Made by a program: the position numbers and the translations under genes | Shown: one piece after another, positions 13,089-60,492 of the stretch | Position numbering within the stretch: the stretch's first letter is position 1 | Layout of the letters: every line of letters starts with the position of its first letter | Assembly: GCA_963837215.1 (NCBI GenBank) | Contig: CAWIML010000009.1 | Coordinates: 222,739-286,738, forward strand | Direction: 5' to 3' | DNA length: 64,000 bases | DNA from: an uncultured Chloroflexia bacterium | GTDB lineage: Bacteria; Chloroflexota; Limnocylindria; Limnocylindrales; CSP1-4 | The notes under the pieces: generated by a model | Told to the model about the DNA's origin: nothing | The model's input: only the letters and a program-made list of their open reading frames with translations | The model's database searches: none

Positions 13089-13153
13089 GGATCGTCGAGC
13101 CTCCGGAGTCGAGCCGCGTGGGACGAGGTAAAGCGGCCGGTGTCGCAGCCGAG

Positions 13154-36428: not shown

Positions 36429-37545
36429 GTGAGCGAGACCGCCATCGCGTTCACGGATCTGCTGGGCAGGCGTGTCCGGATGGGTCCCTGGGAGGACCAG
36501 AAGGTTTCCACCTACCGAAAGATCATCGAAGCCCTCGAGGGCGGCCGGTGGGACGAGGCGGCGACTCTCGGTAGCTACTTCGTGGACGAAGCGAATGTCT
36601 GCTTCACGCTCTATCGGCAGTGGATCGGCGACCTGAACGGGTTCCTGCGCGACAAGGGTGTCGACGAGGACGTCATCCAGGCGCGCAACGACCAGGCGGT
36701 CGCGGTCGCGACCCTGCCGGACGGCACGCCGTGGCTTCCCCGGAAGCATTGGGACCGGTTCCTGTCCGAGGTCCAGGCCTTCACGGCCGCGACCTATCGC
36801 GAGCGGCCCGACGAGGCCCGCCGCCGGCTGGACACCATGAAGGAGACCTGGCGTCAGTGTCACGACCGCGACGTCGACCACACCTATGCGCTGATGTCGT
36901 TGATCAAGGAGCAGCTCGGCGAGGACGCCATCAGGGAGATGTTCGATCGCGTCCTGCTACCGCTGTTCGTGTGGCGTTATGAGAAGTTCGACATCGACAA
37001 GTACCCGTGGGACGAGTCCCTCGAGATCCTGATGCTCGTGGCCTGCGAGGCGATGCGCGGCCATCTCGTGGGGCCCGGAGCGGACCGGCGACATGGAGCT
37101 CGTCGAGCTCGAAGACCGCTTCGTCCTGCGCTTCGATCCGTGTGGCTCAGGCGGCCGGACGCTGCGCGGCGACTCGATCGAGGGCACGCCACCGCGGATG
37201 CAGCCCCCGTATGACTGGACCGTGACAGAGGAGCCCCACACCTGGAACCACAACACGCCAGGTGTCTGCCTCTACTGCACCCACTGCATCATCCTGATGG
37301 AGGAGATGCCCATCGATCGCTTCGGCTACCCCGTCCGGGTGGTCGACCCGCCGGTCTACGACGCAGCGCGAACCGCGGTCGGCGAAGCGCAGAAGTGCCA
37401 GTGGCAGATGTTCAAGGATCCGACCCAGGTCCCCGAGGAGTACTACACGCGAGTCGGGCGAACGAAGCCGACGACCTTCGGGTCCAAGGCGCATGGCGCC
37501 CGTCAGCTGCCGGTCATGAACGCCGGACTTCCTGGCGCCGGCTGA
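36429..37545 (+). pseudogene. Uncharacterised Cys-rich protein family, copy 1 (one +1 frameshift at about 37080-37083)
   Basis: GTG 36429 after GGGAGG. The frame of ORF 35895..37214 runs up to ...EAMRGHLVGPGA. ORF 37093..37545 then supplies ...MELVELEDRFVLRFDPCGSGGR...GVCLYCTHC...KCQW. It is collinear with 41151..42290 and 55659..56750. Confidence 0.7.
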
Positions 37546-37648: not shown

Positions 37649-38776
37649 TCAGTCGAAGCGGTAGCCGCGCACGACCGCCTCGTCGACGTCGACGCCCAGC
37701 CCGGGGCCGGCCGGCGGGATGACCCAGCCGTCGACCTGTTCGATCGGACGTCGGACGAGCTCGTGCTGCATCGGTGATGGCAGCGGCTTGAGTTCCATGA
37801 GCAGCACGTTGTCCGATGCGGCGGCCAGGTGGAGCGAGGCCGCGGTGTTGAGCGCGCTGCTCCACGAGTGGGCGTTCCACGCCCGCCCGGCCCGACTCGC
37901 TGCGCGGATGACGTTCCAGGTGCCGGTCACGCCCTCGGCCTTGCCCGGATCGACCATCACCACATCCACCCCGCCCGAGTCGATCAGTCGATCATAGTGA
38001 TCGATCGTCCAGCCCTTCTCACCGGTGCAGATGCGGGTGGTGGCTGCGGCATGAAGAGCCTGGTACCCGGCGATGTCGTTCTCCGGCAGCGGGTCCTCGA
38101 GCCAGAACAGACCGACCTCATCGTCGAGCCGATGGGCCATGTGGATGGCATGCTCTGGGGTCCAGCCCGCGAGGGCAACGACGTCGCAGATCATCTCGAT
38201 GTCGTCGCCGATCGCGCGCCGCACCGCGTGCGCGATCGCCATGTCGCGCGCCTCGTCGCGCCCGAAGGCCCTGGCGAGATCATGGCCCCAGCCACCTTTC
38301 ACGATGGTGTAGCCCTGATCCCGGAATGCGGAGAACTCCTCGGTGATGCGCTCCGTGTCGTCGCCGTGGAAGATCGCACTGGCACACGCGCGCAGCCGAT
38401 CGTGTCGCCGGCCGCCCAACATCTCCGACAGGGACCGGCCCTCGATGCGGCCCTTGAGGTCCCACAACGCCATGTCGAGGGCTGAGATCGCGAACGTCAC
38501 GATGCCGCCATTGCCATCCCAGTAGGTCGCGTCGCGCATGCGCGTCCACAGGTCGGTCACATCCAGGGCATCCTGCCCGATGAGGAGCGGTGCCAGGCGC
38601 CGCTCCGCGATCAACCGGACGGCAAGCGACGTCTCCTGCGTGCCGCTGACCGCTTCGCCCCAGCCCACCTGCCCGTCGTCGGCCTCCACCCGCGCCAGCG
38701 TCAGCGAGCGGATCTTGCCGTCGTTGTTCGGTTCCGGGTAGCGGACCGCGAAAGCCTCGACGCGGGCGATGCTCAC
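37649..38776 (-). CDS. Enolase-superfamily dehydratase-like protein (second subtype)
   Basis: VGWGEA, ALWDLKGR, WLEDP and GEKGW blocks. Paralog of 21209..22348. GTGA overlap with the upstream VOC gene. Confidence 0.85.
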   Translation of the reverse strand: MSIARVEAFAVRYPEPNNDGKIRSLTLARVEADDGQVGWGEAVSGTQETSLAVRLIAERRLAPLLIGQDALDVTDLWTRMRDATYWDGNGGIVTFAISALDMALWDLKGRIEGRSLSEMLGGRRHDRLRACASAIFHGDDTERITEEFSAFRDQGYTIVKGGWGHDLARAFGRDEARDMAIAHAVRRAIGDDIEMICDVVALAGWTPEHAIHMAHRLDDEVGLFWLEDPLPENDIAGYQALHAAATTRICTGEKGWTIDHYDRLIDSGGVDVVMVDPGKAEGVTGTWNVIRAASRAGRAWNAHSWSSALNTAASLHLAAASDNVLLMELKPLPSPMQHELVRRPIEQVDGWVIPPAGPGLGVDVDEAVVRGYRFD

Positions 38777-39252
38777 GCCGTCCAGTCCGGACCGCCGGGC
38801 GGCTCCTCGAGCAATTCGATCGAAATGCCGTCAGGGTCCCGGAGGTAGCAAGCGCGACCACCGCGGTATGGCCCCCATGGGATGTCCACCGGAGCGTCCG
38901 AGCGGAACGTGTCGAAGCCGGCAGCCTGCAGTCGGAGGTAGTCAGCCGACATGTCGTCCGTGACGAGGCAGAGGTGGGCATTCCCGGCGTTGTACGACTC
39001 CATGTCGACGACGCCGGCCGGCGGTGACTTGTACTCCAGCAGTTCGAGGATCACACCGTTCGGAAGCTGGAAGAAGGCGCCTTCGAGGACCAGGTCGGCG
39101 TAGCCGACGATCTCGCCCACGTACGGGACATCCCAGGTCTTGCGGGTGATCATCGGGACGCCGAGCAGCGCTTCGTAGAACGCGATCGAGCGATCCAGAT
39201 CGGCGACTGCGTACCCGACATGATCGAGCGCCCGAAACCGCGGACCAGTCAT
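38773..39252 (-). CDS. VOC (glyoxalase/dioxygenase) family protein
   Basis: LDHVGYAVADLDRSIAFY... and DPDGISIELLE. ATG 39252 preferred; the track start is 39288. Confidence 0.75.
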   Translation of the reverse strand: MTGPRFRALDHVGYAVADLDRSIAFYEALLGVPMITRKTWDVPYVGEIVGYADLVLEGAFFQLPNGVILELLEYKSPPAGVVDMESYNAGNAHLCLVTDDMSADYLRLQAAGFDTFRSDAPVDIPWGPYRGGRACYLRDPDGISIELLEEPPGGPDWTA

Positions 39253-39294
39253 CACTCCAACCGTAGTGGACGATGGTTGGTCGCGCAACAGCCG

Positions 39295-40035
39295 TCAGTG
39301 GAGGGCGAGGCCGCCGGTGATGTCGAACTCCGCCCCGGTCGCGTACGTGTTCTGGTCGCTCACGAGCCAGGCGACCATCCGGCCGATCTCGGCCGGATCT
39401 GCGATCCGGCGAAGCGGGATCATCTCCCGCTCCGCCTTGGCCACCAACTCCGGCGAGGTCTCGTTGAGGAGCATGCCCGTCCTCATCCCCCCGGGACAGA
39501 CGGTGTTGACCAGGACGCCGTGTTCGGCTCCATGGCGTGCGAGCATCTTGGTGAAGACGGCCACGGCGCCCTTGGATGCCTCGTAGATGGCCGAGGTCAT
39601 GGTGAAGCCGCCTTCATAGACCCCGGTCGAGGTCACGTTGACGATCCGCCCCCAGCCACGGGAGGCCATGTCCGGAATGGCCGCCCGGGCGAGGATGAAG
39701 GGGGCAAGGGCGTTGACGTGGAAGACGCGGTCGAAGTCCGCGGGGGTGACGTCGTCGAACGCGCGACGGTGCAGGATCGCCGCCGCGTTGACCAGGGCGT
39801 CGACGCGTCCGAACGCGGCGATCGTCCGAGGGACCACCGTTTCCGCCTCGTCCGCGAGGCCGAGGTCGACGACCTGCGTCATCGCGTCCGCCCCCAGTGC
39901 GCTGACCTCGGCACGCGTGCGTTCGACCGCATCGCCCTGGTTGTCGACGAGGCTTAGCCGGTAGTCGCCTGCCTCGGTCAGCAACCGCGCGACCGCCGAC
40001 CCGAGCCCTCCACCGGCTCCGGTGATGATGGCCAC
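39295..40035 (-). CDS. SDR-family oxidoreductase
   Basis: GTG 40035 with AAGGAG 6 nt upstream. TGAGGGLG and YEASK motifs. The rest of the 554-aa track ORF is antisense to 40074..41150. Confidence 0.8.
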   Translation of the reverse strand: MAIITGAGGGLGSAVARLLTEAGDYRLSLVDNQGDAVERTRAEVSALGADAMTQVVDLGLADEAETVVPRTIAAFGRVDALVNAAAILHRRAFDDVTPADFDRVFHVNALAPFILARAAIPDMASRGWGRIVNVTSTGVYEGGFTMTSAIYEASKGAVAVFTKMLARHGAEHGVLVNTVCPGGMRTGMLLNETSPELVAKAEREMIPLRRIADPAEIGRMVAWLVSDQNTYATGAEFDITGGLALH

Positions 40036-40073
40036 GCGCCGCTCCTTATTGCCGGCGGACGGTGAACCGCTCG

Positions 40074-41150
40074 TCACGATCTCGCTCCTTCCAGGCTCGT
40101 TGCCAACCCATCCTGCGCGGCGCTTCGGTACGCGGCGTGGAGGGTCTCGACGGTGAGCTGCCCGATCCAGGCCGGCGAACCATTGATGCCCGATCCGCTG
40201 GCGAGATCGATCAAGTTCCGCGCGGGGCTTGTCATCGGGTATCGATCTTGGGGTGGCAGGACTGGCTCCTCGATCGTGCCGTCCTGGCCGTAGAGCCGCA
40301 GCGACCCGTCCATGACTCCGAAATGCAGGTGCCCGACCGAACCGTGGATGATGTATTCGAGGGTATCGGTGTGCGTCACGGGCGCGACGGCGCCAGTACT
40401 GCCGACGACCCCGAGCGCCCCGCCTCGAAAACGGATGGCAAGGGCGTCCACGACATCGACCGCCGTCCCTTGGCGGTCCATGAACGCCGTCACCCGTTCT
40501 GGTTCCAGCCCGGTCAGGAAGATCAGCAGCGCGATGGAATGGGTGAGCTGCGTCTGGCCCTGGCCGCCGCCTGCCAGGTCGGGTTCCGAGTAGGTCGTCG
40601 CCAACGGCCCGTCGAACGCCTCGCCCGCGCCGTACGCATAGACGTCGAGCTCTGGCGCTCCACGGTACAGGTTGATCGGGCTCGAGCCGAAGAAGGACTG
40701 CACATAGTGGATGGATCCGATCCGCCCATCCTCGATCCAGGCGCGGGCTCGCAGGACCTGCTGGTTGTAGTGCCACGTGTAGCCGACCACGATCTCCACG
40801 CCGGCCGCGGCAGCTGCCGCGATCAGCGCTCGGCCGTCCGCCGGCTCGAGCACGAGCGGCTTCTCCACGAGGACGTGGACGCCGCGGCCGACGGCGTCGA
40901 GGGCGATCTCGTAGTGGTAGCGGTGCGGTGCCGCGACGATGAGGGCGTCGAGTTCGCACTCCGCCAGCATCGCCGCGGGGTCGTCGAAGCAGGCTTCGAC
41001 ACCGTAGCGACGCGCGGACCGCTCGAGGTTCGGGCGATCAGGGTCGGCCAGCGCGACGAGCTCGGCGTGCGGGTGGCTCGCGACGGCGGGAAGGTGCGCC
41101 GTCCTGGCCCAGTGGCCGACGCCGGCGACACCGATCCGCACGCGATGCAT
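40074..41150 (-). CDS. Gfo/Idh/MocA-family dehydrogenase
   Basis: VRIGVAGVGHW, EKPL and GGGQGQTQLTH. Its ATG directly abuts the stop codon of the Cys-rich gene (41151), with a 0-nt spacer. Confidence 0.85.
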   Translation of the reverse strand: MHRVRIGVAGVGHWARTAHLPAVASHPHAELVALADPDRPNLERSARRYGVEACFDDPAAMLAECELDALIVAAPHRYHYEIALDAVGRGVHVLVEKPLVLEPADGRALIAAAAAAGVEIVVGYTWHYNQQVLRARAWIEDGRIGSIHYVQSFFGSSPINLYRGAPELDVYAYGAGEAFDGPLATTYSEPDLAGGGQGQTQLTHSIALLIFLTGLEPERVTAFMDRQGTAVDVVDALAIRFRGGALGVVGSTGAVAPVTHTDTLEYIIHGSVGHLHFGVMDGSLRLYGQDGTIEEPVLPPQDRYPMTSPARNLIDLASGSGINGSPAWIGQLTVETLHAAYRSAAQDGLATSLEGARS

Positions 41151-42290
41151 CTAGGCCTGCTCCTCGCCCGGCTTGCCGACGTCCGTGGGCTTCGTGCGTC
41201 CGACATCGCGGTAGTAGCGCTCTGGCACGTCGGCCGGGTCCTTGTAGACATGCCACACGCACTTCGCCTCGCGCGTGTCGGGGTAGGTCGGCGGCTCCAC
41301 GACGCGAACCGGATACCCGAACGTATCGATCGGCATGAGCTGCATCACGACACAGCAGTTGACGCAGTAGTAGCACACGCCTTTCTTGTTCCAGGCGAAG
41401 TCGTAGGCTTCCTTCGTGACCCCGTAGCCGAACGGCGACTCCATCCTCGGCGGCGAGCCCTCGATGGCATCGCCGCGCATCGAGCGTCCGCCGCTGCCAC
41501 ACGGATCAAAACGCCACGTGAAGCGCTCGGCATCCTCGGTGAACTCCATGGTGCCGTCGCGCTCCGGCCCGACCAGGTGGCCCCGCATCGCCTCGAACGC
41601 GAGGTAGACATTCGTCCAGAGCGAGTCGGACCAAGGGTTCCGGGCAACGTCGAACTTTTCGTACCGGGCGGCGAACAGCGGCCCGATGATGGCATCCCAG
41701 AATTCGCCGACGACCGGTTCGCCCCAGCGCACCACCGCCTCGTTGAGCAGCCCATAGAGATGATCGACGTCACGGTCCTGGATCTGGCGCCAGGTCTCCT
41801 TGGACTGTGCCAGAAGCGTCGATGCGCCGGCGCCGTCCTGGGCTCCGCAGGCGAGGACGGTCGCCCGGATCTCGGCCTGGAACTCGGCCCATCGGGCACG
41901 CGCCACGAACGGCCGACCGTCGGGCAGGGGGATGAGCGCGAGGAGCCGCGTGTTCAGTTCCAGGAGTTCCGGTCGCGTGAACCCGCGCTGCTCCAGGAAC
42001 GAGATCGCATCCGGGATCAGGCCACGGAAGACACCGAAGATGACCGAGGCCTCATCGACGAAGAAGTCGACGTACGCTGCCGCGCGCGACCAGTCGCCAT
42101 CGTCGATCGCATCCAGCGCCTTCCTGAACGTCGAGACGGCGGCGTCCGACCACTCGGCGTCGGACCGGATGCGCCGGCCCAAGACCTCCGAGTAGCGCAG
42201 GACGTCCCCGTCGACCATCGGCGTGCCGACTGACGGCCCGGCCGCTTCCGTCAGCAACTCCTCGATCCAACCCCCGGCGTCACCGGCCAT
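41151..42290 (-). CDS. Uncharacterised Cys-rich protein family, copy 2 (intact)
   Basis: 379 aa, GGAGGG RBS. Conserved blocks EAMRGHLVGP, RFDPCGSGGR, GDAIEG, GVCYYCVNC, GYPVRVVEPP, KCVW and GRTKP are shared with the other two copies. I cannot place it in a named family. Confidence 0.8.
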   Translation of the reverse strand: MAGDAGGWIEELLTEAAGPSVGTPMVDGDVLRYSEVLGRRIRSDAEWSDAAVSTFRKALDAIDDGDWSRAAAYVDFFVDEASVIFGVFRGLIPDAISFLEQRGFTRPELLELNTRLLALIPLPDGRPFVARARWAEFQAEIRATVLACGAQDGAGASTLLAQSKETWRQIQDRDVDHLYGLLNEAVVRWGEPVVGEFWDAIIGPLFAARYEKFDVARNPWSDSLWTNVYLAFEAMRGHLVGPERDGTMEFTEDAERFTWRFDPCGSGGRSMRGDAIEGSPPRMESPFGYGVTKEAYDFAWNKKGVCYYCVNCCVVMQLMPIDTFGYPVRVVEPPTYPDTREAKCVWHVYKDPADVPERYYRDVGRTKPTDVGKPGEEQA

Positions 42291-42318
42291 CCGTCCCTCC
42301 GCGTCCTATCGCCGGGTG

Positions 42319-43092
42319 TCAGCCCGACAGATTCCCGCCGTCGATGTTGATCGATTCGCCGCTGATCCAGCCGGCACTCTCGGAGATCAGGAACATGATC
42401 GTATCGGCCACGTCCGCCACCGTGCCCAGTCGGCGCAACGGGTAGGCGGCGGCACCGTCCTCGAGGACGCGCGCCGCGGGCTTGTCGAAGAGCCGCACCT
42501 TCTGCTCCAGCACCTTCTGGCCCATGCCGGTGTCCGCGACGGTCGATGGACAGACGGCGTTGACGGTGATGCCGAGTGGCCCCAGCTCGGCCGCCAGCGA
42601 CTCGGTCAGCCCGACGACTCCGAATTTCGAAGCGACGTAGGCAGAGATGAGTGCGTAGCCCTTCTTGCCAGCGTCCGACGCGACATTGACGATGCGCCCG
42701 CGGCCACTGTCCCGAAGGTGGGGGAGGGCAGCCTGACAGGTCAGGAACACGCCCTTGAGATTGACGTCCAGGATCCAGTCCCACTCACGCTCCGAGATCT
42801 CGCCGAGGGCCCGGAACTCGAACACGCCTGCGCTATTGACGAGGGTGTCCAGGCCCCCCAGGGCCTCCGCGGCTGCGGCGGTCCCCACCTCGACGGATGT
42901 CCGATCCGCAACGTCGATGACGATCGCTGTGGCACCCGGCAAGCGTGCGGCCGCTCGCTCGACCGCGGCCGCATCGATGTCAGCGATCGCGACCGTCGCC
43001 CCGGCCTGCGTCAGCCGTTCGGCAACGCCGAAACCAAAGCCGGATGCGCCGCCCGTGATGAGCGCTCTGCGGCCCTCCGCGATCTCGAACAT
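42319..43092 (-). CDS. SDR-family oxidoreductase (FabG-like)
   Basis: TGGASGFG and YVASK motifs. First gene of the long minus-strand operon 43092..37649. Confidence 0.85.
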   Translation of the reverse strand: MFEIAEGRRALITGGASGFGFGVAERLTQAGATVAIADIDAAAVERAAARLPGATAIVIDVADRTSVEVGTAAAAEALGGLDTLVNSAGVFEFRALGEISEREWDWILDVNLKGVFLTCQAALPHLRDSGRGRIVNVASDAGKKGYALISAYVASKFGVVGLTESLAAELGPLGITVNAVCPSTVADTGMGQKVLEQKVRLFDKPAARVLEDGAAAYPLRRLGTVADVADTIMFLISESAGWISGESINIDGGNLSG

Positions 43093-51725: not shown

Positions 51726-52894
51726 CGGACGACGGCCTGCGCATCATGGGCGGCACCGTCATCGACCCGGCGAGCGGGCAGCACGCTGCCGCCGATGTCG
51801 CCGTCGCCGGTGGACGGATCGCTGCGGTCGAAACGCGCCTCGCATCGTCGGACACGGGCGATGTGCTGGATGCCACGGACCTGCTCGTCGTACCCGGCCT
51901 GGTCGACCTCCACGTCCACGTCTACTGGGGCGTCGCCGACCTGTCCGTCGAGGCCGACCCGACCTGCCTCGGCCGCGGCGCCACGACGGTGGTGGACGCG
52001 GGGTCCGCCGGAGCCAACACCTTTCCTGGGTTCCGGCGCTACGTCGTCGACGCCAGCCGCGGTCGGGTGCTCGCGTACCTGAACATCAGCGCCACCGGCC
52101 AGATCGATCCGTTCCTGGGGGAACTGCACGACCTGCGCTTTGCCGATCCGGAGCGCGCGGCGGCGGTCGCGCTGGCGAACCCGGACGTCATCGTCGGCTT
52201 CAAGGTGCGCCTCTCGGAGATGCTCGCCGGGCCCAACGGCCTGGCCGGCCTGGATCTGGCGCTGGAGGCGGGCCGCGCAACGGGCCTGCCGGTCATGGTC
52301 CACATCGGCGGTACGCCGTTCGACATCGAAGCGGTGCTCGGCCGCCTCCGCAAGGGCGACATCGTGACCCATGCCTACACCGAGTGGCGGCCAGGCATCG
52401 TCGCCTCGGACGGGCGCGTCGTGGCCGCAGCCCACGAGGCGCGGGCGCGGGGCGTTCGGTTCGACGTCGGCCATGGGGCCGGCAGCTTCACCTGGGCCGT
52501 CGCAGAAGCGGCCCTTGCCGATGGATTCCGACCCGACACCATCAGCTCCGACCTGCACCGTTTCAACGTCGCCAGCCCGGTCCACGACCTCGCCACGACG
52601 CTCTCGAAGTTCCTCCTTCTGGGCCTACCCCTCGACGACGTCATCGCGATGGCCACGACGGCGCCGGCCGCAGCCCTCTCACGCGAGCGTGATCTGGCGA
52701 CGCTCGCGGTCGGCGCGGAGGCGGACATCGCGCTCCTCCGCCTGGAGGAAGGTCGCTTCGACCTGACCGACTCGGCAGGTACGACCCGTGAGGCGCCTCA
52801 GCGCCTTGTCCCAGTGGCCGTGATCCGCGCCGGACGGCAGGTGCCCATCGAGCCACTCGCCACGGAGCCACCGTCGGGCATCAGTCCTGGCTGA
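51722..52894 (+). CDS. Amidohydrolase-superfamily metallohydrolase (dihydroorotase/deacetylase-like)
   Basis: VPGLVDLHVHVY metal motif, VMVHIG and DVGHG blocks. ATGA overlap with the upstream gene. Confidence 0.75.
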   Translation: MTDDGLRIMGGTVIDPASGQHAAADVAVAGGRIAAVETRLASSDTGDVLDATDLLVVPGLVDLHVHVYWGVADLSVEADPTCLGRGATTVVDAGSAGANTFPGFRRYVVDASRGRVLAYLNISATGQIDPFLGELHDLRFADPERAAAVALANPDVIVGFKVRLSEMLAGPNGLAGLDLALEAGRATGLPVMVHIGGTPFDIEAVLGRLRKGDIVTHAYTEWRPGIVASDGRVVAAAHEARARGVRFDVGHGAGSFTWAVAEAALADGFRPDTISSDLHRFNVASPVHDLATTLSKFLLLGLPLDDVIAMATTAPAAALSRERDLATLAVGAEADIALLRLEEGRFDLTDSAGTTREAPQRLVPVAVIRAGRQVPIEPLATEPPSGISPG

Positions 52895-53984
52895 CCGCCT
52901 CGATCCGGCCGGAGGCCGCGCTCCGATACAGCCCGTCGAGCACCTCCACGACCCGAGCGCCCAGCTCGGCTGGCGATGGATTCTCCGTCGTGCGGCCGAG
53001 GACCAGGTCGACGATCCGGTCGATCACGCGATCGAACGACCATCGGACGTCCTCTTCGTCGAGGGTCACGGTCACCTCATCGGAGCCTGTGGACCGAACC
53101 ACGCGCGGTGCCGCCATGTCCAAGATGACCTGGCCGCGGCGGCCGGTCAGCCGAATCGTGAGCTGATGCTGGTTCCCGAACGTGCCCGGCGGCAACGAGG
53201 ACCCCCCGATCGAGCCGATCGCGCCACCCACGAAGCGAACTGCGAGGGCATCGTGGAGCTCCACGCGCGCGCCCGGGCCGCCCGTGAAGGCGGCCACCTC
53301 CTGGGCACGTAGGCCCGGCAACAGGTGCATCACGAGGCCAAGTGCGTGGGTCAGCTGGCCCTGTCCGTATCCTCCACCGGAAACGGCCGGGTCCGACCAA
53401 GTCTCGTGGCGCGGCAGGGGGACGTCTTCACCGCCCAGGTATGTCGCTCCGTCGGTCAAGAGGTCGCGGACGACGGTCGCCATCTCGACACCGACGTGCT
53501 CCAACTCGCCGATGCCGTCCGGTCCGTGGATGAGACGTCGTGCGTGCCCCACGATGCCCATCTCGTTCCAGGCGTAGCAGAGCACCACGTGGAGATCGCG
53601 CCGTCGGGCGAGGTGATCGATCGCCCAGGCGTCGGCTGGGTCGATCGTGAAAGGCTTCTCGGCCAGGACGTGGATGCCCGCCTCCAGCGCGGTGCGCGCC
53701 TGTACCGCCCGAAGGGCAACGGGGCCCGTGAGAGCCACGATATCCGGCTCGGCGTCGATGACCTCGTGCCAGTCTGTCGTCGCGTGCCTGAAGCCGAACC
53801 GGTCCCGCAGCATGGCGAGCTCCGCGGGGTCGCGCCGATTCACGATCCAGGGCGCGACCTCCGAATGTCGGAGGAAGCCGGGGATGTGCGCGAAGGCCGC
53901 CCATGCGCCCGCACCGATGACCCCCAGACGAAGCTGGTGCCCGCCGTCCAGTCCGGGCGCTACGTCTCGCGGCGGGTCCCTCAC
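52881..53984 (-). CDS. Gfo/Idh/MocA-family dehydrogenase
   Basis: LRLGVIGAGAW, EKPF and SGGGYGQGQLTH. Closest paralog of 19879..20949. GTGA overlap with the upstream SDR. Confidence 0.85.
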   Translation of the reverse strand: MRDPPRDVAPGLDGGHQLRLGVIGAGAWAAFAHIPGFLRHSEVAPWIVNRRDPAELAMLRDRFGFRHATTDWHEVIDAEPDIVALTGPVALRAVQARTALEAGIHVLAEKPFTIDPADAWAIDHLARRRDLHVVLCYAWNEMGIVGHARRLIHGPDGIGELEHVGVEMATVVRDLLTDGATYLGGEDVPLPRHETWSDPAVSGGGYGQGQLTHALGLVMHLLPGLRAQEVAAFTGGPGARVELHDALAVRFVGGAIGSIGGSSLPPGTFGNQHQLTIRLTGRRGQVILDMAAPRVVRSTGSDEVTVTLDEEDVRWSFDRVIDRIVDLVLGRTTENPSPAELGARVVEVLDGLYRSAASGRIEAVSQD

Positions 53985-54697
53985 GTCATGATCCAGCCGC
54001 CATTGACATCGATCGTCGCGCCGTTGATATAGCTTGCCGCATCGGAGGCCAGGAAGCCGACGACCTGGGCGATCTCGATGGGGGCGGCGAAGCGGCCCAG
54101 CGGTACGAGCGCGATGAAGTGCTCGCGCTCCTCCGCGGTGAGATGGTCGGTCATGAAACCTTCCACCGCTCCCGGCGCGACGGCGTTGGCCGTGATGCCA
54201 TGAGGGCCGTAGTTGCGGGCGAAGTTCTTCATCAGGCTGATGACGCCCGCCTTGGCGGCGTTGTAGACGGCGGAGTTGGAGACGCCACCAGTGCGGGCCC
54301 CGACGCTGGAGATGCCGATGATCCGGCCCCAGCGATTGGGACGCATCGCCTCCGCAGCCGCCTGCGAGAGGAAGAAGACAGCGCGCAGGTTCACCGAGGT
54401 CTGCAGGTCGTAGTCGTCGAGCGTGACGTCCCGAAGCGGATGGTCGTGGACGTAGACCGCGGCGTTGTGGACGAGGACGTCAAGGCGTCCTTCCGTGGCC
54501 ATGACGTCCGCCACGATCTGGCCCGGTACAGCTGGATCCAGCAGGTCGGCGGCGACTGTTCGTGCCAGACTCCCACGCGTCTGGTCCAGTCGGTCCAGGC
54601 CTACGACCCGGTGTCCCGACTCCGCCAACACGTCGCACATCGCGCGGCCCATCCCGCGCGCGCTACCGGTGACGAGCGCGACCCGGGACTCGGTCAT
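53981..54697 (-). CDS. SDR-family oxidoreductase
   Basis: TGSARGMG and YNAAK motifs. Confidence 0.85.
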   Translation of the reverse strand: MTESRVALVTGSARGMGRAMCDVLAESGHRVVGLDRLDQTRGSLARTVAADLLDPAVPGQIVADVMATEGRLDVLVHNAAVYVHDHPLRDVTLDDYDLQTSVNLRAVFFLSQAAAEAMRPNRWGRIIGISSVGARTGGVSNSAVYNAAKAGVISLMKNFARNYGPHGITANAVAPGAVEGFMTDHLTAEEREHFIALVPLGRFAAPIEIAQVVGFLASDAASYINGATIDVNGGWIMT

Positions 54698-54752
54698 GCA
54701 CCACCCCTCCTATCGCGAATCCCGGCCAGGCCGGACGCAAGGCCGCCTCGGA

Positions 54753-55646
54753 TCAGATCCGGTAGAGCCGCTCGGCGTTGCGGTAGAGCATCTGTTCCTG
54801 CTCCGCCCGACCGAAACCGGCCTCGGCGATGATCCGCCGATAGGCGTCTGTCTGCTCCAGGTAGGTCGCATACAGGATGTCCACCGGCCAGTTCGTGCCG
54901 AACATGATGCGCTCCGGTCCGAAGGCTTCGATGCAGTGCAGTACCCAGGGCCGTATCGAGTCGATCGTCCAGTGGTTGTCCGCCATGCCGAAGCCGGACA
55001 CCTTGCAGGCCACGTTCTCGGCCTCGGCGAGCGCGGTCATCTCCGACTGCCACTGGGCGAAGTATTCGGCGTCGCGCTGGACCGGGAACCCGGCGTGACC
55101 CAGGATGACCTGGATGTCCGGGTTGGCGACGGCCACCGCGCGTCCGGACAGGAGCTTGCCGGGCGAGGCATTGAGTTCGTAGGACAGGCCGCGCTCGCCC
55201 AGCGCCGCGTACCCGCTCTTGAATGTCGCCGTGTCCGGATCGTCGGGGTGGGCCCGGATCCGGACGCCCCGCACGCGATCCGAGGCCGCCAGATGCTGGT
55301 CCAGCTTGGCTTCCGCTCCAGCCGCCTCGATGTCGCAGAAGACCACCAGCGCGTGCGGGAAGCCGAACTCCCGGCCGACCTCCTCCAGCCAGACGGTCTC
55401 CTCGAGCGCATCCGGCCCGGCGTACGCGGCCTCCACGTGGACACTCTTGGTGACGTTCGCCCCGTAGAACTCCTTGAAGAATCGCCAGGGAGCGCCGATC
55501 GTCGAGCGGATCATCTTGTAGTCGCCGAGCAGGGCGTTGTGGCCCTCCCAGCCGGGCTCCGTCAGCCAGTCGTACTGGAATCGATCGAGCTCCCAGAGGT
55601 GGTGGTGAGTCTCGATGAATGGGATGCTGCGATCGGGCTCGGTCAC
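54753..55646 (-). CDS. Amidohydrolase_2-family hydrolase (L-fuconolactonase / sugar-lactonase-like)
   Basis: IETHHHLWE N-terminal motif, GHAGFP, and FGTNWP near the C-terminus. GTG start after GGAGGAGG. Confidence 0.8.
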   Translation of the reverse strand: MTEPDRSIPFIETHHHLWELDRFQYDWLTEPGWEGHNALLGDYKMIRSTIGAPWRFFKEFYGANVTKSVHVEAAYAGPDALEETVWLEEVGREFGFPHALVVFCDIEAAGAEAKLDQHLAASDRVRGVRIRAHPDDPDTATFKSGYAALGERGLSYELNASPGKLLSGRAVAVANPDIQVILGHAGFPVQRDAEYFAQWQSEMTALAEAENVACKVSGFGMADNHWTIDSIRPWVLHCIEAFGPERIMFGTNWPVDILYATYLEQTDAYRRIIAEAGFGRAEQEQMLYRNAERLYRI

Positions 55647-55658
55647 GTGGCCTCCTCC

Positions 55659-56750
55659 TCAGTCTGGCTGGATGACTGGCAATGCCGGCTTGGATCGGCC
55701 GATTCGCTCGTACTCACGCTCGGGGATGGCCTCGAGCGTCTTCCACACGGTCCACTTGCACTGCTTGCGAGTCAGCGGGTCATCCTCCCCGCGCCACAGC
55801 GGCGGGTCCACGGTGCGGATCGGGTGGCCCCAACGCTCGGCCGGCAACGTCGAGAGCGTCAGGTTGCAGTGCGCGCAGTAGTAGCAGACACCGACCTCAT
55901 TCCAGGCCCACGGATGTCGCTCCTGAGTGACCCCGAAGTCATATGGGGCGAGGACTCGGGATCCCGTGCCCTCGATCTCGTCGCCGCGGACCTGGCGCCC
56001 ACCGGAGCCGCACGGATCGAAGCGCAGCTCCCAGCGATCATCGAACTCCACGAGGTCGATGTCGCCACGTCGGCCGGGCCCGACCAGATGCGCCCGCATC
56101 GCCTCGAGGGAGATGTACAGGTTTCGGACGAGGGTCTCGGCATACGGCCGAAGCCGCGTGTCGAAGACCATGTAACGCTCCTGGATGTACGGCTCCAGGA
56201 CCGATCGGTAGCACGGTTCCAGGGCCGCCTCGCCGAACCGCCTGGCCACGAAGGCCAGGACCCCGGCCATGAGGTCGGCGTAGCGATCGTGCAGGCGTCG
56301 CCAATCTGCGACCAGCGTCTCGAGGGCGCTTTCTCCGTCAGCGACCGATAGTTCGTAGCTGCGGATGCCGTTGCCCAGGGCGCCGGCAGACTCGCCCAGG
56401 GCTGCCCAGCGCACGGCCGGGTCGAGCGGGGTGCCATCCGGCCAAGCCATCAGCGTGCGAAGCCGCGACAGCTCGGCCTCGAGGTCGTCCTCGCTGACGC
56501 CCTGCTCGCGCAGCCAGGCGAGGAAGCCTGCCGTCCAAACGTCGTAGATGACGTAGACGACCTTGGCTTCCTCCATGAAGTAGTCGACCAACTGCGCCGC
56601 GGTCTCGCGACGGCCTGCGCCTGGCCCGAACGTGTCTCCGGCCTCGCGCAATGCCTCCTGGATCTTCGTGACCGTCGATATGGCCTGATCCGCCCAGTCG
56701 CCGGTGCGGACGCGCTTGCCGATCTCCTCGGACCACGTCAGGTGAGTCAT
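55659..56750 (-). CDS. Uncharacterised Cys-rich protein family, copy 3 (intact)
   Basis: 363 aa. EAMRAHLVGP, RFDPCGSGGR, GDEIEG, GVCYYCAHC, GHPIRTVDPP, QCKW and GRSKP. Lies between the ABC permease (21-nt gap) and the lactonase (12-nt gap). Confidence 0.8.
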   Translation of the reverse strand: MTHLTWSEEIGKRVRTGDWADQAISTVTKIQEALREAGDTFGPGAGRRETAAQLVDYFMEEAKVVYVIYDVWTAGFLAWLREQGVSEDDLEAELSRLRTLMAWPDGTPLDPAVRWAALGESAGALGNGIRSYELSVADGESALETLVADWRRLHDRYADLMAGVLAFVARRFGEAALEPCYRSVLEPYIQERYMVFDTRLRPYAETLVRNLYISLEAMRAHLVGPGRRGDIDLVEFDDRWELRFDPCGSGGRQVRGDEIEGTGSRVLAPYDFGVTQERHPWAWNEVGVCYYCAHCNLTLSTLPAERWGHPIRTVDPPLWRGEDDPLTRKQCKWTVWKTLEAIPEREYERIGRSKPALPVIQPD

Positions 56751-56771
56751 CGATCGCCGCTCGAATCGACC

Positions 56772-57845
56772 TCAGCCGGTCGCAAGCGAATAGCGCACGC
56801 GCACCTGGTCAAAGCCAACGGCCACGAGCAGCAGCACGCCACCCGCGACATCGATCCAGAAGGACGGGACGCCCAACTGGATGAGGCCGTTACCCAGCAC
56901 CCCGACGATGAGCACGGCCAGCGTCGTGCCGACGATCGAGCCGCGCCCGCCTGACAGGCTGGCGCCACCCAGGACGACCGCCGTGACGACCGCCAGCTCG
57001 AGGCCGATGCCGGCGTTGGGCGAGGCGCTGCCGACCTGGGACACGAGGATCAACCCCGAGAGTCCGGCCAGAGCTGCCGACAGGATGAAGGCGATGAAGA
57101 TGGCTCGGTCCGTGCGGATGCCGGCCAGTCGAGCCGCGGTGGGGCTGGCGCCGATGGCGTACATCGAGCGCCCATACGTCGTGTATCGAAGCATGATGAA
57201 GAACACGACCACGACGGCGGCAAAGATGTAAACCGGGATCGGCAGGCCCACGATGCGGGTGATCCCAAGGCTCGCGAAGTCATCGAGGCGGACCGTCTGC
57301 CCATCGCTGGCGACCTTCGTGAGACCCCGAAATATCGCCAGGGTGGCCAACGTCGTGATCAGTGCATTGATGCGGAAGACCGTGACGCTGACCGCATTCA
57401 CGATCCCGACGACCAGCGCAGCACCCATGCCGAGCACCAACGCGACCCACAGGTCCAGGCCTGGCGTGATCGGGGCACCCGACGTTGCCGCGGCGATGGC
57501 GGCCACCATGGCCACGAAGGCGGAGATGGAGCCGACCGAGAGGTCGAACTGGCCGCTGATGAGCAGCAGCGTTGCCGGGCAGGCGACGATGCCGATCCGT
57601 GCGGTGTTCTGGAGGATGTTGATGAGGTTCGCGCTGTTCAGGAAGAACGCCGACGTGACCGAGAAGAAGACGATGAGGACCACAAGCACGGCGAAGAGGA
57701 CCGCGGTCTCCGGCAAGGACACGCGCGACCGGGCCTCGGCCGTCCGCATCGTCGCGGCGACCGACACCTCATCGGCGCCCGATCCCGTATCCAGTGGATC
57801 AGGGGCGGCCCGCTGGATGCCGCCGGACAGCTCGTCGTCAGCCAC
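56772..57845 (-). CDS. Sugar ABC transporter permease
   Basis: Hydrophobic multi-span protein with GGASLSGGRGS. Confidence 0.9.
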   Translation of the reverse strand: MADDELSGGIQRAAPDPLDTGSGADEVSVAATMRTAEARSRVSLPETAVLFAVLVVLIVFFSVTSAFFLNSANLINILQNTARIGIVACPATLLLISGQFDLSVGSISAFVAMVAAIAAATSGAPITPGLDLWVALVLGMGAALVVGIVNAVSVTVFRINALITTLATLAIFRGLTKVASDGQTVRLDDFASLGITRIVGLPIPVYIFAAVVVVFFIMLRYTTYGRSMYAIGASPTAARLAGIRTDRAIFIAFILSAALAGLSGLILVSQVGSASPNAGIGLELAVVTAVVLGGASLSGGRGSIVGTTLAVLIVGVLGNGLIQLGVPSFWIDVAGGVLLLVAVGFDQVRVRYSLATG

Positions 57846-57851
57846 GCCGCT

Positions 57852-59342
57852 CTACCCTCCCGCGGCCGCGAGCAGCCGCCCGGTGCTGATCTCGGGGCCC
57901 GTCAGCTCGGCCGCAACGCGGCCCTTGCTCATGACATACGCCCGATCGGCGACCTGGACCGCCTCCTCGTAGTCGGATGTCACGGCGAGCACCGCCACAC
58001 CCTGAGCGGCGAGATCGCGCAGCGAGCGATAGATGTCCGCACGGGCGCCCACGTCGACACCGCGCGTCGGTTCGATGAGCACCAGTGCCCGCGAGTTGCG
58101 CTCCAGCCAACGCGCCAGCAGCACTTTCTGCTGGTTCCCCCCCGACAGCGTGCCCATGGCCTGCTTGGCGTCGTTGCGCGAGCGGATCGACAGGCGTTCA
58201 CGCCACCGATGGAAGGCCGCTGCCTCGACCTTGTCACGGATCATCCCGAACCGGGCGAGGATCGGCCAGCTCGCGACGGCCACGTTCTCCGCGACAGACC
58301 GGACGGCGAACGCTCCGCCCGCCTTGCGGTCGGCCGGCAGGAAGCCGATGCCCGCCCCGATGGCGCCGGCAGGTCGATCGAACGTCGCCACCGTGCCCTG
58401 CACCTCCAGGGTGCCACGATCGAGGTGCCTGACACCGAAGGCTGACTCGCCCACCTCTGCCGCACCCGAGCCCAGCTTCCCGAAGAGGGCTACGACTTCG
58501 CCTGACTTGACCGAGACGTCGACATCGTTGAACGTCTCGCCCAGGCCGGCGCCTGTCCAGCGCAGGACTGGCGCGTCGCCGATGGCGTGGGTCGGTGCCT
58601 CCGGGCGTCCCACCTCTGCCATGCGACGCCCGATCATCGCTTCGATCATGCGCGGGCGATCGGTCGCCTTCACGGCCGTCAGCAGGGAGGTCGCGCCGTC
58701 GCGCAGCACCTGCACCTGGTCGGCGATCTGGGTCACCTCGTCCAGGCGGTGGGTGATGTAGATGATGGCCACGCCCTGGTCACGCAGTCGTCGGATGAAG
58801 CGGAACAGGGTCTCCGCCTCGTGGTGCGAGAGCGCCGCGGTCGGTTCATCGAGGATGAGCAGGCGTGCGGAACCCGAGAGCGAGCGGGCGATCTCGACCA
58901 TCTGGCGCTCGCCGACTCGCAACGTGCCCACCTGACGATCCACGTCAAGCTCCACGCCCAGCTGATCGAGGATGGTGCGGGCGCGCCGGCGCATCGCACG
59001 CCAGGACACGAATCCGTATCGGTTGGGGATGCGTCCGAGGGAGACGTTCTCGGCGACGGTCAGCGTAGACGCGTCCTGGAACTCCTGGAAGATGATCGCG
59101 ACGCCGAGTTCGCGCGCCTGGCGCGGGGTGAGCACACCGTAGCTCGCGCCATCGACCTGGATCTCGCCGGAGTCGGCCTGATAGTCGCCGGCGATGATCT
59201 TGACGAGCGTGGACTTTCCGGCGCCGTTCTCTCCCAGCAGGGCGAGGACAGAGCCGCCAGCGGCATCGAGGTCCACGCCATGGAGGACCTCGACGCCGCC
59301 GAAGGACTTGCGGATCTGGCGAGCGTGCAGTTCGAACGTCAT
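57852..59342 (-). CDS. Sugar ABC transporter ATP-binding protein (two ATPase domains)
   Basis: GENGAGKST, LILDEPTAAL and LSGGNQQKV motifs. Confidence 0.9.
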   Translation of the reverse strand: MTFELHARQIRKSFGGVEVLHGVDLDAAGGSVLALLGENGAGKSTLVKIIAGDYQADSGEIQVDGASYGVLTPRQARELGVAIIFQEFQDASTLTVAENVSLGRIPNRYGFVSWRAMRRRARTILDQLGVELDVDRQVGTLRVGERQMVEIARSLSGSARLLILDEPTAALSHHEAETLFRFIRRLRDQGVAIIYITHRLDEVTQIADQVQVLRDGATSLLTAVKATDRPRMIEAMIGRRMAEVGRPEAPTHAIGDAPVLRWTGAGLGETFNDVDVSVKSGEVVALFGKLGSGAAEVGESAFGVRHLDRGTLEVQGTVATFDRPAGAIGAGIGFLPADRKAGGAFAVRSVAENVAVASWPILARFGMIRDKVEAAAFHRWRERLSIRSRNDAKQAMGTLSGGNQQKVLLARWLERNSRALVLIEPTRGVDVGARADIYRSLRDLAAQGVAVLAVTSDYEEAVQVADRAYVMSKGRVAAELTGPEISTGRLLAAAGG

Positions 59343-59379
59343 GCCGTCGCCGACTCGCTTGGACTACCTATGGGGACGG

Positions 59380-60492
59380 TCAGCAGGCGGGTGTGTTCGG
59401 ATAGATCGTCCGGATGTTGTCCTTGTTCACGACCACGTGCTGGTTCAACAGCCTGTCGGGGACGGTCCCGCCAGCGCCGTCAGGCGTGACGGCCTTGCCG
59501 TCGAGGATGTCGATGATGGCCGGGATGAGCGTCTTACCGTAATTCTCGGGGAAGTACGCGACCGACCCGATGTAGTTGGGGTTACAGGCGATCTCCTTCC
59601 AGGCGAACTCGTCGGCGCCCTGGCCGCTGTAATAGACGTCGCCCGAACGGCCGAGGGTAGCAGCGGCGCCGATGGTGCCGACGATGCCGTCTTCGTTGAT
59701 GCCGACCACGACGATGCGGTCGCCCGGCAGCGCCGTGAGCACGTCAGACATCGTGCCGATGGCCTTGTCGGTGCGGTCGACGTCCGGCTGGATCTTCTCG
59801 TTGATGATCGGGCAGTACTCCTGGAAGCCGTCGCGATAGCCGCCCATGCGGGCGTCGCTGGCTGCCTTGGCGCCGGTCGACTCGAGCGAAACGTAGGCTG
59901 TGTAGTCGCAGTCCCACGTCTCCTTGGCGAACTTGCCGATGGCTGCACCGCCGAGGCGGCCGGCCTCGTGGTTATCGGCGCCCATGAAGGCGACCTGGCA
60001 CGGCGGCTGGATGATGTCGATGGCGATCGTCGGTACGTTGCCGTAGGCCTCGCAGATCTGGGGAGAGGCCTTCTCATCCACGTTGAAGTTCAGGACGCCC
60101 TGGACTTCCTGCACGGCGAATTGCTGAGCGCAGGCCAGAGCGGTCGGGGTATCGAGCTTGGAATCGCAGAACACAAGCTCCAGACCGGCGATCTCGGCCT
60201 GCTCCTTGATGCCGTTCGAGACGAGCACCGCGAAGGGCACCTGCTCGCCCAGCGAGATGTAGCCGATCTTCTTGCCGGCCCCGCTGCCGGGCACGGCGCC
60301 GGTCTCGACGTAGGGGTTGACTGGGGCGGCTGGGGCGGCTGCAGGCGAGCCCGAGGCCGGCGCGGCAGAGCCGGGTGCCTCTGTTGCCGGGGCCTCCGAC
60401 GTGGTCGGCGCCGACGGGCTGGTCGTCGCGCCGGTACACGCCGATGCCGCGAGTGTCGCAGCAACTGCCAATATGGCCAATCGCGCAAGCAT
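59380..60492 (-). CDS. Sugar ABC transporter substrate-binding lipoprotein
   Basis: ATG 60492 with AAGGAG 10 nt upstream. Lipobox LAASAC. Pro/Ala/Ser linker. Confidence 0.85.
   Translation of the reverse strand: MLARLAILAVAATLAASACTGATTSPSAPTTSEAPATEAPGSAAPASGSPAAAPAAPVNPYVETGAVPGSGAGKKIGYISLGEQVPFAVLVSNGIKEQAEIAGLELVFCDSKLDTPTALACAQQFAVQEVQGVLNFNVDEKASPQICEAYGNVPTIAIDIIQPPCQVAFMGADNHEAGRLGGAAIGKFAKETWDCDYTAYVSLESTGAKAASDARMGGYRDGFQEYCPIINEKIQPDVDRTDKAIGTMSDVLTALPGDRIVVVGINEDGIVGTIGAAATLGRSGDVYYSGQGADEFAWKEIACNPNYIGSVAYFPENYGKTLIPAIIDILDGKAVTPDGAGGTVPDRLLNQHVVVNKDNIRTIYPNTPAC

Follow-up and report, generated by a model that had tools for sequence, protein, structure and literature searches.

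A cysteine-rich protein family without a described relative in putative non-phosphorylative sugar operons of Chloroflexota, Actinomycetota and Bacteroidota

Gene content and layout of the operon

The window analysed in this study is a 64,000-nucleotide stretch from an uncultured Chloroflexia bacterium (Limnocylindrales; assembly GCA_963837215.1, contig CAWIML010000009.1, positions 222,739 to 286,738 of the forward strand). Its minus strand carries, between positions 52881 and 60492, a seven-gene operon in which a sugar transporter is followed by the gene of a cysteine-rich (Cys-rich) protein, a candidate lactonase and two dehydrogenases. A preceding sequence-only reading had placed the Cys-rich protein in the slot of a missing acid-sugar dehydratase. 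Listing of the open reading frames (ORFs) combined with Pfam and NCBIfam scans confirmed the gene order given there, which is, in the direction of transcription:

59380..60492, minus strand: sugar-type substrate-binding lipoprotein (SBP), RbsB-like (Peripla_BP_4, Pfam 2.1e-17)
57852..59342, minus strand: ABC ATPase with two nucleotide-binding domains, CUT2 monosaccharide type (ABC_tran twice, 1.5e-45)
56772..57845, minus strand: ABC permease, AraH/RbsC-like (BPD_transp_2, Pfam 1.4e-36)
55659..56750, minus strand: Cys-rich protein copy 3, 363 amino acids (aa), no family match
54753..55646, minus strand: Amidohydro_2 protein, candidate sugar lactonase (Pfam 1e-34)
53981..54697, minus strand: classical short-chain dehydrogenase/reductase (SDR), FabG-like (adh_short_C2, 1.1e-49)
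52881..53984, minus strand: Gfo/Idh/MocA dehydrogenase (GFO_IDH_MocA, 1.7e-12)

The label copy 3 was likewise borne out by tblastn, which revealed two further paralogues, copy 2 and copy 1, in the window. Calculated from the coordinates, the spacers in gene order are 37, 6, 21, 12 and 55 nt, followed by a 4-nt overlap in which the GTG start of the Gfo/Idh/MocA gene overlaps the SDR stop codon (GTGA); the 21-nt, 12-nt and GTGA values had been read correctly before. The identical gene order was found in 44 orthologous loci of other metagenome-assembled genomes (MAGs), from which we conclude that the arrangement is not due to chance. A promoter and terminator scan yielded nothing informative in this high-GC region.

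The longest ORF of the SBP extends to 60660; the ATG at 60492 starts a lipoprotein-like signal, MLARLAILAVAATLAASAC, with a lipobox after this ATG and GGAGGAGG upstream of it. Against the NCBIfam models, all three transporter components scored under the respective cut-offs, with the SBP matching RbsB far under it (3e-9), the ATPase matching AraG, YtfR and RbsA (1e-136 to 1e-115, every score under the equivalog cut-offs) and the permease matching AraH (2e-64). The combination of a Peripla_BP_4 SBP, an ATPase with two fused nucleotide-binding domains and a BPD_transp_2 permease is that of a CUT2-type monosaccharide ABC importer.

The Amidohydro_2 protein reached 81.8 bits against the NCBIfam L-fucono-1,5-lactonase model (cut-off 400), with PDB entries 4DLF/4DO7 as its best sequence match (E 7e-11). 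For the SDR, PDB and NCBIfam returned generic matches only, and the PDB matches of the Gfo/Idh/MocA protein were distant (levoglucosan, scyllo-inositol/L-glucose and L-arabinose 1-dehydrogenases). Candidate genes for a sugar 1-dehydrogenase step are present, with matches to characterised sugar 1-dehydrogenases being distant only. None of the seven genes matched MR_MLE or ILVD_EDD in Pfam, in line with the earlier statement that the operon is devoid of an enolase-superfamily or IlvD/Edd gene.

Sequence, distribution and predicted structure of the Cys-rich family

The Cys-rich protein has no described relative in sequence or fold, and it resides in an operon whose type is a variation on known non-phosphorylative sugar catabolism. 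The long form of the protein, represented by copy 3, gave no match in Pfam or NCBIfam at E ≤ 0.01, and neither the short nor the fused forms matched Pfam. Searching PDB sequences with a single sequence and with a profile at E ≤ 10 returned designed helical repeats only. In a 90%-clustered database, copy 3 had more than 800 and copy 2 more than 1000 matches, all of them annotated as 'hypothetical' and none with a Pfam domain, and 783 family clusters were obtained at 50% identity. Full-text searching of the literature found no characterisation of the family.

Among GTDB species representatives, 358 stretches were confirmed, of which 80 were fetched; all 80 loci are from MAGs of Chloroflexota and Actinomycetota, the latter being Acidimicrobiia including sponge symbionts, Gaiella and Solirubrobacterales. 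The best homologues of copy 3 (88% identity) belong to MAGs labelled Candidatus Limnocylindrales or 'uncultured Chloroflexia', which places the window in a Limnocylindria-like Chloroflexota genome. Chloroflexota and Actinomycetota have the long form (360-380 aa), whereas the short form (~250 aa), with about 100 helical-domain residues fewer, is that of Bacteroidota, including a Reichenbachiella sp. assembly. Homologues of 30% identity were found on four Rhodococcus plasmids, and the cultured carriers include R. opacus 1CP, R. pyridinivorans SB3094 and R. jostii RHA1, in the last of which the copy is truncated beside an insertion sequence (IS) element.

Confident AlphaFold2 models were obtained, with a pLDDT of 92.6 and a pTM of 0.90 for the long form (copy 3), and with a pLDDT of 91.0 and a pTM of 0.86 for the short form. 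The long form is predicted to consist of an N-terminal β-hairpin, a helical bundle (approximately residues 26-220) and a small α/β domain bearing Cys247, Cys289, Cys292, Cys295 and Cys331; hairpin, bundle and α/β domain are also seen in the short-form model. Foldseek comparison of both models with the PDB gave no match under E = 0.1. Weak matches that recurred for both were H-NOX, the PoxR V4R sensory domain, TPC6 and BcsD (TM 0.2-0.4), the best being 3tf8 (E 0.16, TM 0.21/0.32) and 5frv (E 1.7, TM 0.33/0.40).

Residue conservation was counted over 150 cluster representatives, with copy 3 numbering:

Cys247 (in DPCGSGG): 93%
Cys289: 71%
Cys292: 90%
Cys295: 91%
Cys331: 98%
His221: 91%
Tyr291: 96%

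Arg219, Glu216, Asp155, His154, Arg192/Tyr193 and Arg312 are further strongly conserved residues. Taken together, the conserved Cys, His, Tyr, Arg, Glu and Asp residues look like a small-molecule or metal site, with the invariant core looking like a Cys/His/carboxylate site. In six representatives Cys292 and Cys295 are lost jointly, while Cys247, Cys331, His221 and Glu216 are kept, which implies that the CxxCxxC motif is not a universally essential cluster; Asp155 is also kept in these members where covered, save for one substitution by His.

The classical Fe-S motifs (ferredoxin CxxCxxCxxxCP; radical SAM CxxxCxxC) were not matched, as the CxxCxxC motif is without the fourth Cys-Pro and its first Cys is only 71% conserved. 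No Pfam, NCBIfam, PDB-sequence or fold match places the protein in the IlvD/Edd family (PF00920, Fe-S Cys triad), to which it is alike only in being a Cys-containing protein of sugar-acid pathways; size and architecture (363 aa, helical bundle plus small Cys domain) differ. Hence, the analogy to the Fe-S dehydratases drawn in the sequence-only reading is weak, given the lack of similarity in sequence and fold and the joint loss of Cys292 and Cys295 in members that retain His221, Glu216 and Asp155. With its helical bundle and small α/β domain and without MR_MLE_N or MR_MLE_C, the model is not that of an enolase-superfamily member, nor did Pfam reveal FAA_hydrolase (PF01557), so that any likeness to fumarylacetoacetate hydrolase (FAH) family enzymes is one of function only.

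An informative fusion partner was sought among family proteins of 440-840 aa, which gave no informative extra domain; one of them bore a Gfo/Idh/MocA fragment and is probably a merged ORF. Two double-length proteins (P0277, P0362) are composed of two tandem short-form copies, and a second paralogue is present in 18 of 82 long-form loci, arranged in tandem in L046 and L061. The fused double forms and tandem paralogues point to a dimer and suggest that the family acts as a homodimer or heterodimer.

Gene neighbourhoods of the long form

The established route with which these loci were compared is the non-phosphorylative L-fucose/L-rhamnose 'diketo-hydrolase' pathway, comprising the SDR LRA1, the lactonase LRA2, the enolase-superfamily dehydratase LRA3, the SDR LRA5 and the FAH hydrolase LRA6 (PMC11199699, PMC6336799). 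For the comparison, 82 long-form loci of at most 21 kb each were used, leaving out the operon of copy 3 itself; ORFs were called, neighbours were clustered and the clusters were named by Pfam on representatives. Neighbour families were counted within about 9 kb of the Cys-rich gene, except for MR_MLE, which was counted within 8 kb in 79 loci:

SDR, two types: 63 and 54 loci
Amidohydro_2: 49 loci
ABC transporter components: 46 loci
Gfo/Idh/MocA: 40 loci
MR_MLE: 36 of 79 loci
Xylose-isomerase-like TIM: 28 loci
2-Oxoacid dehydrogenase E2, E1 alpha and E1 beta: 25, 18 and 18 loci
VOC: approximately 17 loci
Muconolactone-isomerase (MIase)-like: 17 loci
rhaM: 12 loci

Every other neighbour family was found in at most 7 of 79 loci. 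In four lineages, an SDR nearly always adjoins the Cys-rich gene, often in translational coupling (4-nt overlaps or gaps of 14-23 nt). NCBIfam and PDB comparison of these partner SDRs with the LRA1, LRA5 and KDFDH groups gave generic FabG-like matches only.

Within the same-strand transcription unit of the Cys-rich gene, MR_MLE was found in 11 of 82 loci. Two of these units (L029, L034), both from Chloroflexota, are among the 44 copy-3 orthologues, and the other nine are among the 38 more distant homologues and all from Acidimicrobiia, where the order is SDR-MR_MLE-SDR-Cys-rich gene (seven units) or SDR-VOC-MR_MLE-SDR-Cys-rich gene (two units), with the Amidohydro_2 gene being transcribed divergently. 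Accordingly, MR_MLE is absent from 71 of 82 units, including 42 of 44 copy-3 orthologues; a canonical dehydratase in every homologous operon, which the sequence-only reading had named as refuting its proposal, was thus not found. An Amidohydro_2 or SGL lactonase lies within the unit in up to 29 of 82 loci, and a lactonase function of the Cys-rich protein itself was rejected on this ground.

FAH, acetoacetate-decarboxylase-family (ADC-like), UxaA-type and 2-hydroxyacid-dehydrogenase genes were found in none of the 82 loci. DHDPS and HpcH aldolases are absent from the recurrent neighbour families; no exhaustive search for either was made. The sequence-only reading had held that every step of a non-phosphorylative route has a candidate in the operon save for the dehydratase. 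The absence of the dehydratase stands, but that list of steps omitted the terminal diketo-acid hydrolase or aldolase, and it is this terminal step that is missing more consistently, with FAH in none of the long-form loci and none in the window.

In summary, the loci resemble the LRA pathway in holding SDRs, an Amidohydro_2 protein for which entry 4DLF, an L-fucono-1,5-lactonase, is the nearest relative of solved structure, MR_MLE, rhaM-type mutarotases and sugar ABC transporters. Unlike that pathway, long-form loci never contain an FAH hydrolase, usually have no dehydratase in the operon and always have the Cys-rich protein; they often carry Gfo/Idh/MocA, VOC, xylose-isomerase-like TIM and thiamine diphosphate (ThDP)-dependent E1/E2/E3 genes.

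Paralogues and further sugar-acid genes in the window

The window contains four enolase-superfamily genes (1528-2661, 9979-11118, 21212-22348 and 37649-38776), three of which are located in the following surroundings, listed together with the two paralogues of copy 3:

41151..42290, minus strand: Cys-rich copy 2 (36% identical to copy 3, tblastn 7.5e-70)
37649..43092, minus strand: copy-2 operon with SDR 42319-43092, copy 2, Gfo/Idh/MocA 40074-41150, SDR 39295-40041, VOC 38773-39288 and MR_MLE 37649-38776
37649..38776, minus strand: MR_MLE enolase-superfamily acid-sugar dehydratase, last gene of the copy-2 operon (MR_MLE_C 4.6e-49, MR_MLE_N 2.7e-19)
36438..37545, plus strand: Cys-rich copy 1, frame broken by one extra G near 37070
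21212..22348, plus strand: enolase-superfamily dehydratase, 69% identical to the MR_MLE of the Acidimicrobiia SDR-MR_MLE-SDR-Cys-rich operons (tblastn), followed by an SDR at ~22400-23139
7766..13112, minus strand: operon without a Cys-rich gene, with ThDP E1 alpha and E1 beta, the enolase-superfamily gene 9979-11118, an SMP-30/SGL lactonase (8541-9416) and an SDR (7766-8491)

A protein on a 683-kb public contig (P0121) is identical to copy 2, and loci of the copy-2 type have the order SBP-permease-ATPase-Cys-rich gene-(Gfo/Idh/MocA)-SDR. The MR_MLE protein of the copy-2 operon is galactonate-dehydratase-like, scoring under the cut-off, and its gene overlaps the VOC gene by 4 nt.

Copy 1 was recovered as two tblastn segments in separate frames, with the extra G located in GGGGCCCGGAGCGG; the break could be due to a (recent) pseudogene or to a homopolymer assembly indel. 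The gene is divergent from an EamA gene (35496-36368), rhaM (34758-35441) and an isomerase-like gene (33318-34646), and its orthologues are intact with matching neighbours in L007, L011, L012, L026, L040 and L047. The isomerase-like gene (minus strand, 442 aa) has no Pfam match and only a weak match to the sulfoquinovose isomerase SftI (66 bits, cut-off 700); a P450 gene lies at 32029-33321.

The genes of the operon at 7766-13112 were named by BLAST against Pfam-verified reference proteins. Both a Cys-rich gene and a second SDR are absent from this operon, and its composition suggests an alternative consumption of the 2-keto-3-deoxy sugar acid, namely oxidative decarboxylation by a complex of the 2-oxoacid-dehydrogenase type. 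In Acidimicrobiia and in Rhodococcus RHA1, E1/E2/E3 genes are likewise located beside the Cys-rich gene. No FAH, ADC-like, UxaA-type or 2-hydroxyacid-dehydrogenase gene was found in the 64-kb window, and BLAST with the LRA6-like FAH of the Bacteroidota locus L088 gave no similarity anywhere in it.

Contexts of the short form and of the Rhodococcus homologues

Five short-form modules from Bacteroidota (L088, L089, L091, L092, L093) were inspected, which share the core SDR-Cys-rich gene-ADC-like gene-2-hydroxyacid dehydrogenase. The ADC-like gene is directly downstream of the short form in all five, with an overlap of 1-4 nt or a gap of at most 6 nt, and the D-2-hydroxyacid dehydrogenase is the next gene in four, with rhaM and an SDR being interposed in L091. 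In L089, a carboxylesterase instead of an SDR directly precedes the Cys-rich gene and a UxaA-type dehydratase is encoded nearby. Neighbours of the modules include rhaM, RhaT, GH78/GH106 rhamnosidases, FucU and AKR. Three of the five modules have FAH in their operon (432 bits against the 2,4-didehydro-3-deoxy-L-rhamnonate hydrolase model NF053535, cut-off 500), and one SDR is closest to Lra1. The rhamnosidases, RhaT, the Lra1-like SDR and the LRA6-like FAH are features shared with the LRA pathway; neither an enolase-type dehydratase nor a known lactonase was found in the five modules.

A second protein without a Pfam or NCBIfam match (~265 aa) is encoded between two SDRs in two of these loci (L088:7394-8194, L093:7391-8182), and is a candidate for the lactonase or the dehydratase of the Bacteroidota rhamnose modules.

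The clusters on the Rhodococcus plasmids (L085, NC_023144; L086, NZ_CP009112; L087, NC_008271) are not sugar-acid clusters. In strains SB3094 and 1CP, the order is SDR-DUF1116-SDR-Cys-rich gene, after which come two genes resembling glutamine synthetase and then those for an α/β hydrolase, an SDR and an NAD(P)/FAD oxidoreductase, with acs as the last. On RHA1 plasmid pRHL3, the genes are acyl-CoA dehydrogenase, E1 alpha, E1 beta, E2, ADH, an IS3 element, the truncated Cys-rich gene, lpdA, an SDR and an AMP-binding ligase.

Proposed function and alternative explanations

Our favoured assignment, tentative and of low confidence, makes the Cys-rich protein a metal-dependent enzyme that works downstream of its partner SDR, most likely in the hydrolysis of a 2,4-diketo-3-deoxy acid. 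According to this proposal, the ABC system would import a sugar, either the Gfo/Idh/MocA protein or an SDR would oxidise its C1, and the Amidohydro_2 protein would open the resulting lactone. The aldonate would be dehydrated by an enolase-superfamily enzyme encoded elsewhere in the window than in the operon, and the partner SDR would oxidise the 2-keto-3-deoxy acid. On the 2,4-diketo-3-deoxy acid, a β-diketone, the Cys-rich protein would then act by metal-assisted C-C hydrolysis to give pyruvate and a hydroxy acid, a reaction catalysed in known pathways by the FAH-family enzyme LRA6.

A late role after the SDR is favoured because the terminal step is always missing from long-form loci, because the Acidimicrobiia order puts the Cys-rich gene after the second SDR and because the window has surplus dehydratases and no FAH. 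The Acidimicrobiia order SDR-MR_MLE-SDR-Cys-rich gene parallels the pathway order LRA1-LRA3-LRA5-LRA6, with the Cys-rich gene taking the LRA6-like place in nine units, although the two proteins share no homology. With four enolase-superfamily genes in the window, the dehydratase can be supplied in trans. Comparison of the operon at 7766-13112, which has MR_MLE and ThDP E1 and no Cys-rich gene, with the copy-2 operon, which has MR_MLE, SDRs and the Cys-rich gene, suggests that SDR and Cys-rich protein form a module working downstream of the dehydratase. The Rhodococcus contexts fit the cleavage of a diketone into acid and ketone. Among the neighbours there is an oxidoreductase whose annotation says no more than NAD(P)/FAD-dependent and which is probably a Baeyer-Villiger monooxygenase; the others include an α/β hydrolase of the esterase type, acetyl-CoA synthetase, E1/E2/E3 and an AMP-binding ligase.

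Several observations weigh against this assignment. Three of the five Bacteroidota modules have a strong LRA6-like FAH in the operon alongside the short form and are without an enolase-type dehydratase or known lactonase, a pattern that fits a dehydratase better. The partner SDRs, with their generic FabG-like matches, could not be placed in the KDR/KDF 4-dehydrogenase group, and in the 42 of 44 orthologous Chloroflexota units without a dehydratase the pathway needs genes from elsewhere. Moreover, we know of no precedent for this fold or Cys pattern among C-C hydrolases. No single replacement fits all lineages, since the family co-occurs somewhere with each canonical LRA-type enzyme: a dehydratase conflicts with 11 units (plus some 36 loci with MR_MLE nearby), a lactonase with up to 29 units and a C-C hydrolase with only the three FAH-bearing modules.

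A hydro-lyase would account best for the Bacteroidota modules and the 42 dehydratase-free Chloroflexota units, and is considered only slightly less likely overall than the favoured role. It would either dehydrate the aldonate directly, as the sequence-only reading had it, or β-eliminate water from a keto-aldonate made by the SDR ('oxidise, then eliminate'), in which second form SDR and Cys-rich protein would jointly replace LRA3 and LRA5. The tight coupling to the SDR would suit an unstable keto intermediate, and polarisation of a carbonyl or hydroxyl group could be brought about by a metal site of Cys and His. The absence of MR_MLE from most units and the Bacteroidota rhamnose modules, in which the short form and the ADC-like gene are the constant unknowns, uphold the idea of a dehydratase replacement; the 11 units that share MR_MLE, the pairing of both genes in the copy-2 operon, the frequency of MR_MLE within 8 kb and the UxaA-type dehydratase near the short form in L089 do not agree with it. 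The joint loss of Cys292 and Cys295 speaks against an essential CxxCxxC cluster, no similarity to IlvD/Edd, UxaA or aconitase-type enzymes was detected, and the Rhodococcus homologues outside any sugar-acid context weaken it further, so that the dehydratase proposal is partly supported overall. We see a smaller chance that the protein is an accessory enzyme acting on the substrate or product of the SDR without replacing a canonical step, for example by isomerising or epimerising a ketol (acyloin), by keto-enol tautomerisation, or by opening a ring or isomerising a lactone. SDR adjacency being the sole feature common throughout would be explained in this way, as would the co-occurrence of the family with lactonase, MR_MLE, FAH and UxaA-type dehydratase and the varying next downstream gene (FAH, ADC-like, ThDP E1 or VOC, all acting on keto compounds); the surroundings in RHA1 look like a cluster for the cleavage of acetoin or a diol. 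Known pathways, however, proceed without such a step, neither residue pattern nor fold ties the protein to known isomerases, and the Chloroflexota operons would remain two canonical steps short.

A non-enzymatic role as a small-molecule binder of H-NOX/V4R-like fold with a structural Cys-metal site, serving as ligand carrier, SDR partner subunit or sensor, is regarded as improbable. The only weak Foldseek matches recurring for both models were H-NOX, PoxR V4R and TPC6 (TM 0.3-0.4), and V4R sensory domains of the XylR/DmpR type bind zinc through Cys residues; the tandem paralogues and double-length fusions suggesting a dimer are also consistent with this role. As in the H-NOX, V4R (XylR, DmpR, PoxR) and TRAPP Bet3 group, a helical subdomain is packed on a small α/β subdomain in our models, but the matches are non-significant (E 0.16-2.4, TM ≤ 0.41), sequence similarity is absent and the Cys spacing differs. 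Furthermore, there is no output or DNA-binding domain, and the mid-operon position among catabolic genes, the translational coupling and the many invariant polar residues look enzymatic. An Fe-S redox partner delivering electrons for a neighbouring dehydrogenase, as might be read from the CxxCxxC motif and the two remote Cys residues, is highly improbable and was rejected, as the dehydrogenases nearby are of NAD(P)-dependent families, which do without a protein electron carrier, and as the loci have no recurring ferredoxin, flavoprotein or quinone-linked partner. In addition, the motif varies at its first Cys, and some members dispense with the next two.

Returning to the favoured role after the partner SDR, the family would possibly be an undescribed soluble metalloprotein dedicated to loci for oxidative non-phosphorylative (6-deoxy)aldose catabolism, with the metal, the substrate and the reaction being what we infer; the operon, the family and its conserved residues, its lack of known relatives and the neighbourhood counts are what the analysis shows. 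In wider terms, we give about an even chance to a new metalloenzyme family with a fold outside the PDB that catalyses a core step of oxidative 6-deoxy-sugar or aldose catabolism (diketo-acid C-C cleavage or SDR-coupled dehydration) as a non-homologous replacement of the textbook enzyme in Chloroflexota, Actinomycetota and Bacteroidota that are for the most part uncultured. Carbon-use annotation of MAGs and the building of sugar-acid routes in biotechnology both draw on non-phosphorylative sugar pathways. The family, present in such operons across three phyla, is missing from Pfam, NCBIfam and PDB. If its reaction were assigned, a gap that recurs whenever pathways are reconstructed for abundant bacteria of soil, freshwater and sponges (Limnocylindria, Acidimicrobiia) would be closed, and enzymology would gain a new combination of fold and metal site. 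The cultured Rhodococcus carriers make the question of function directly testable and are practical entry points for genetics.

Flanking genes and further features of the window

Directly upstream of the SBP gene, one further small gene was found:

60683..~61015, minus strand: MIase-like small protein, 84% identical to the MIase-domain protein at L032:9555-9986

The L032 protein matches Pfam MIase at 1.5e-28, and the gene is syntenic in 15 of 44 orthologous units. A mutarotase-like or isomerase function of its product is possible, and the gene may be transcribed separately from the SBP operon.

Beyond it, an E2 acyltransferase is encoded on the plus strand (61044-62102) by two abutting ORFs for the lipoyl domain (61044-61355) and the catalytic domain (61356-62102), the latter beginning immediately past a stop codon. 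A ceramidase-like gene (62081-63559) and a window-end ORF (63556-63999), which is MaoC by synteny in related loci, follow. The E2/ceramidase-like block adjoins the operon syntenically in many Limnocylindria MAGs.

On the other side, a hydrolase block (46131-52894) reaches as far as the Gfo/Idh/MocA gene, the last gene of the block being convergent with it. The block comprises two phosphotriesterase-family genes (46131-47213 and 48752-49846), a xylose-isomerase-like TIM gene (47059-47940), an SDR, a metallo-β-lactamase with an NPCBM_assoc domain (49923-51725) and an Amidohydro_1 gene (51722-52894), and recurs next to orthologous operons, e.g., in L001.

Farther away, a protein of 368 aa without a Pfam match is encoded at 24199-25305 (minus strand). 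A corrinoid methyltransferase set at 14443-20189 consists of a RACo-type reductive activator with Fer2 (14443-16185), a pterin-binding methyltransferase (16218-17294), two small unannotated genes (17168-18710) and a URO-D/MtaA-like gene (18744-20189); judged from its gene content, this set could be an O-demethylase system within the sugar island, possibly acting on methylated sugars.

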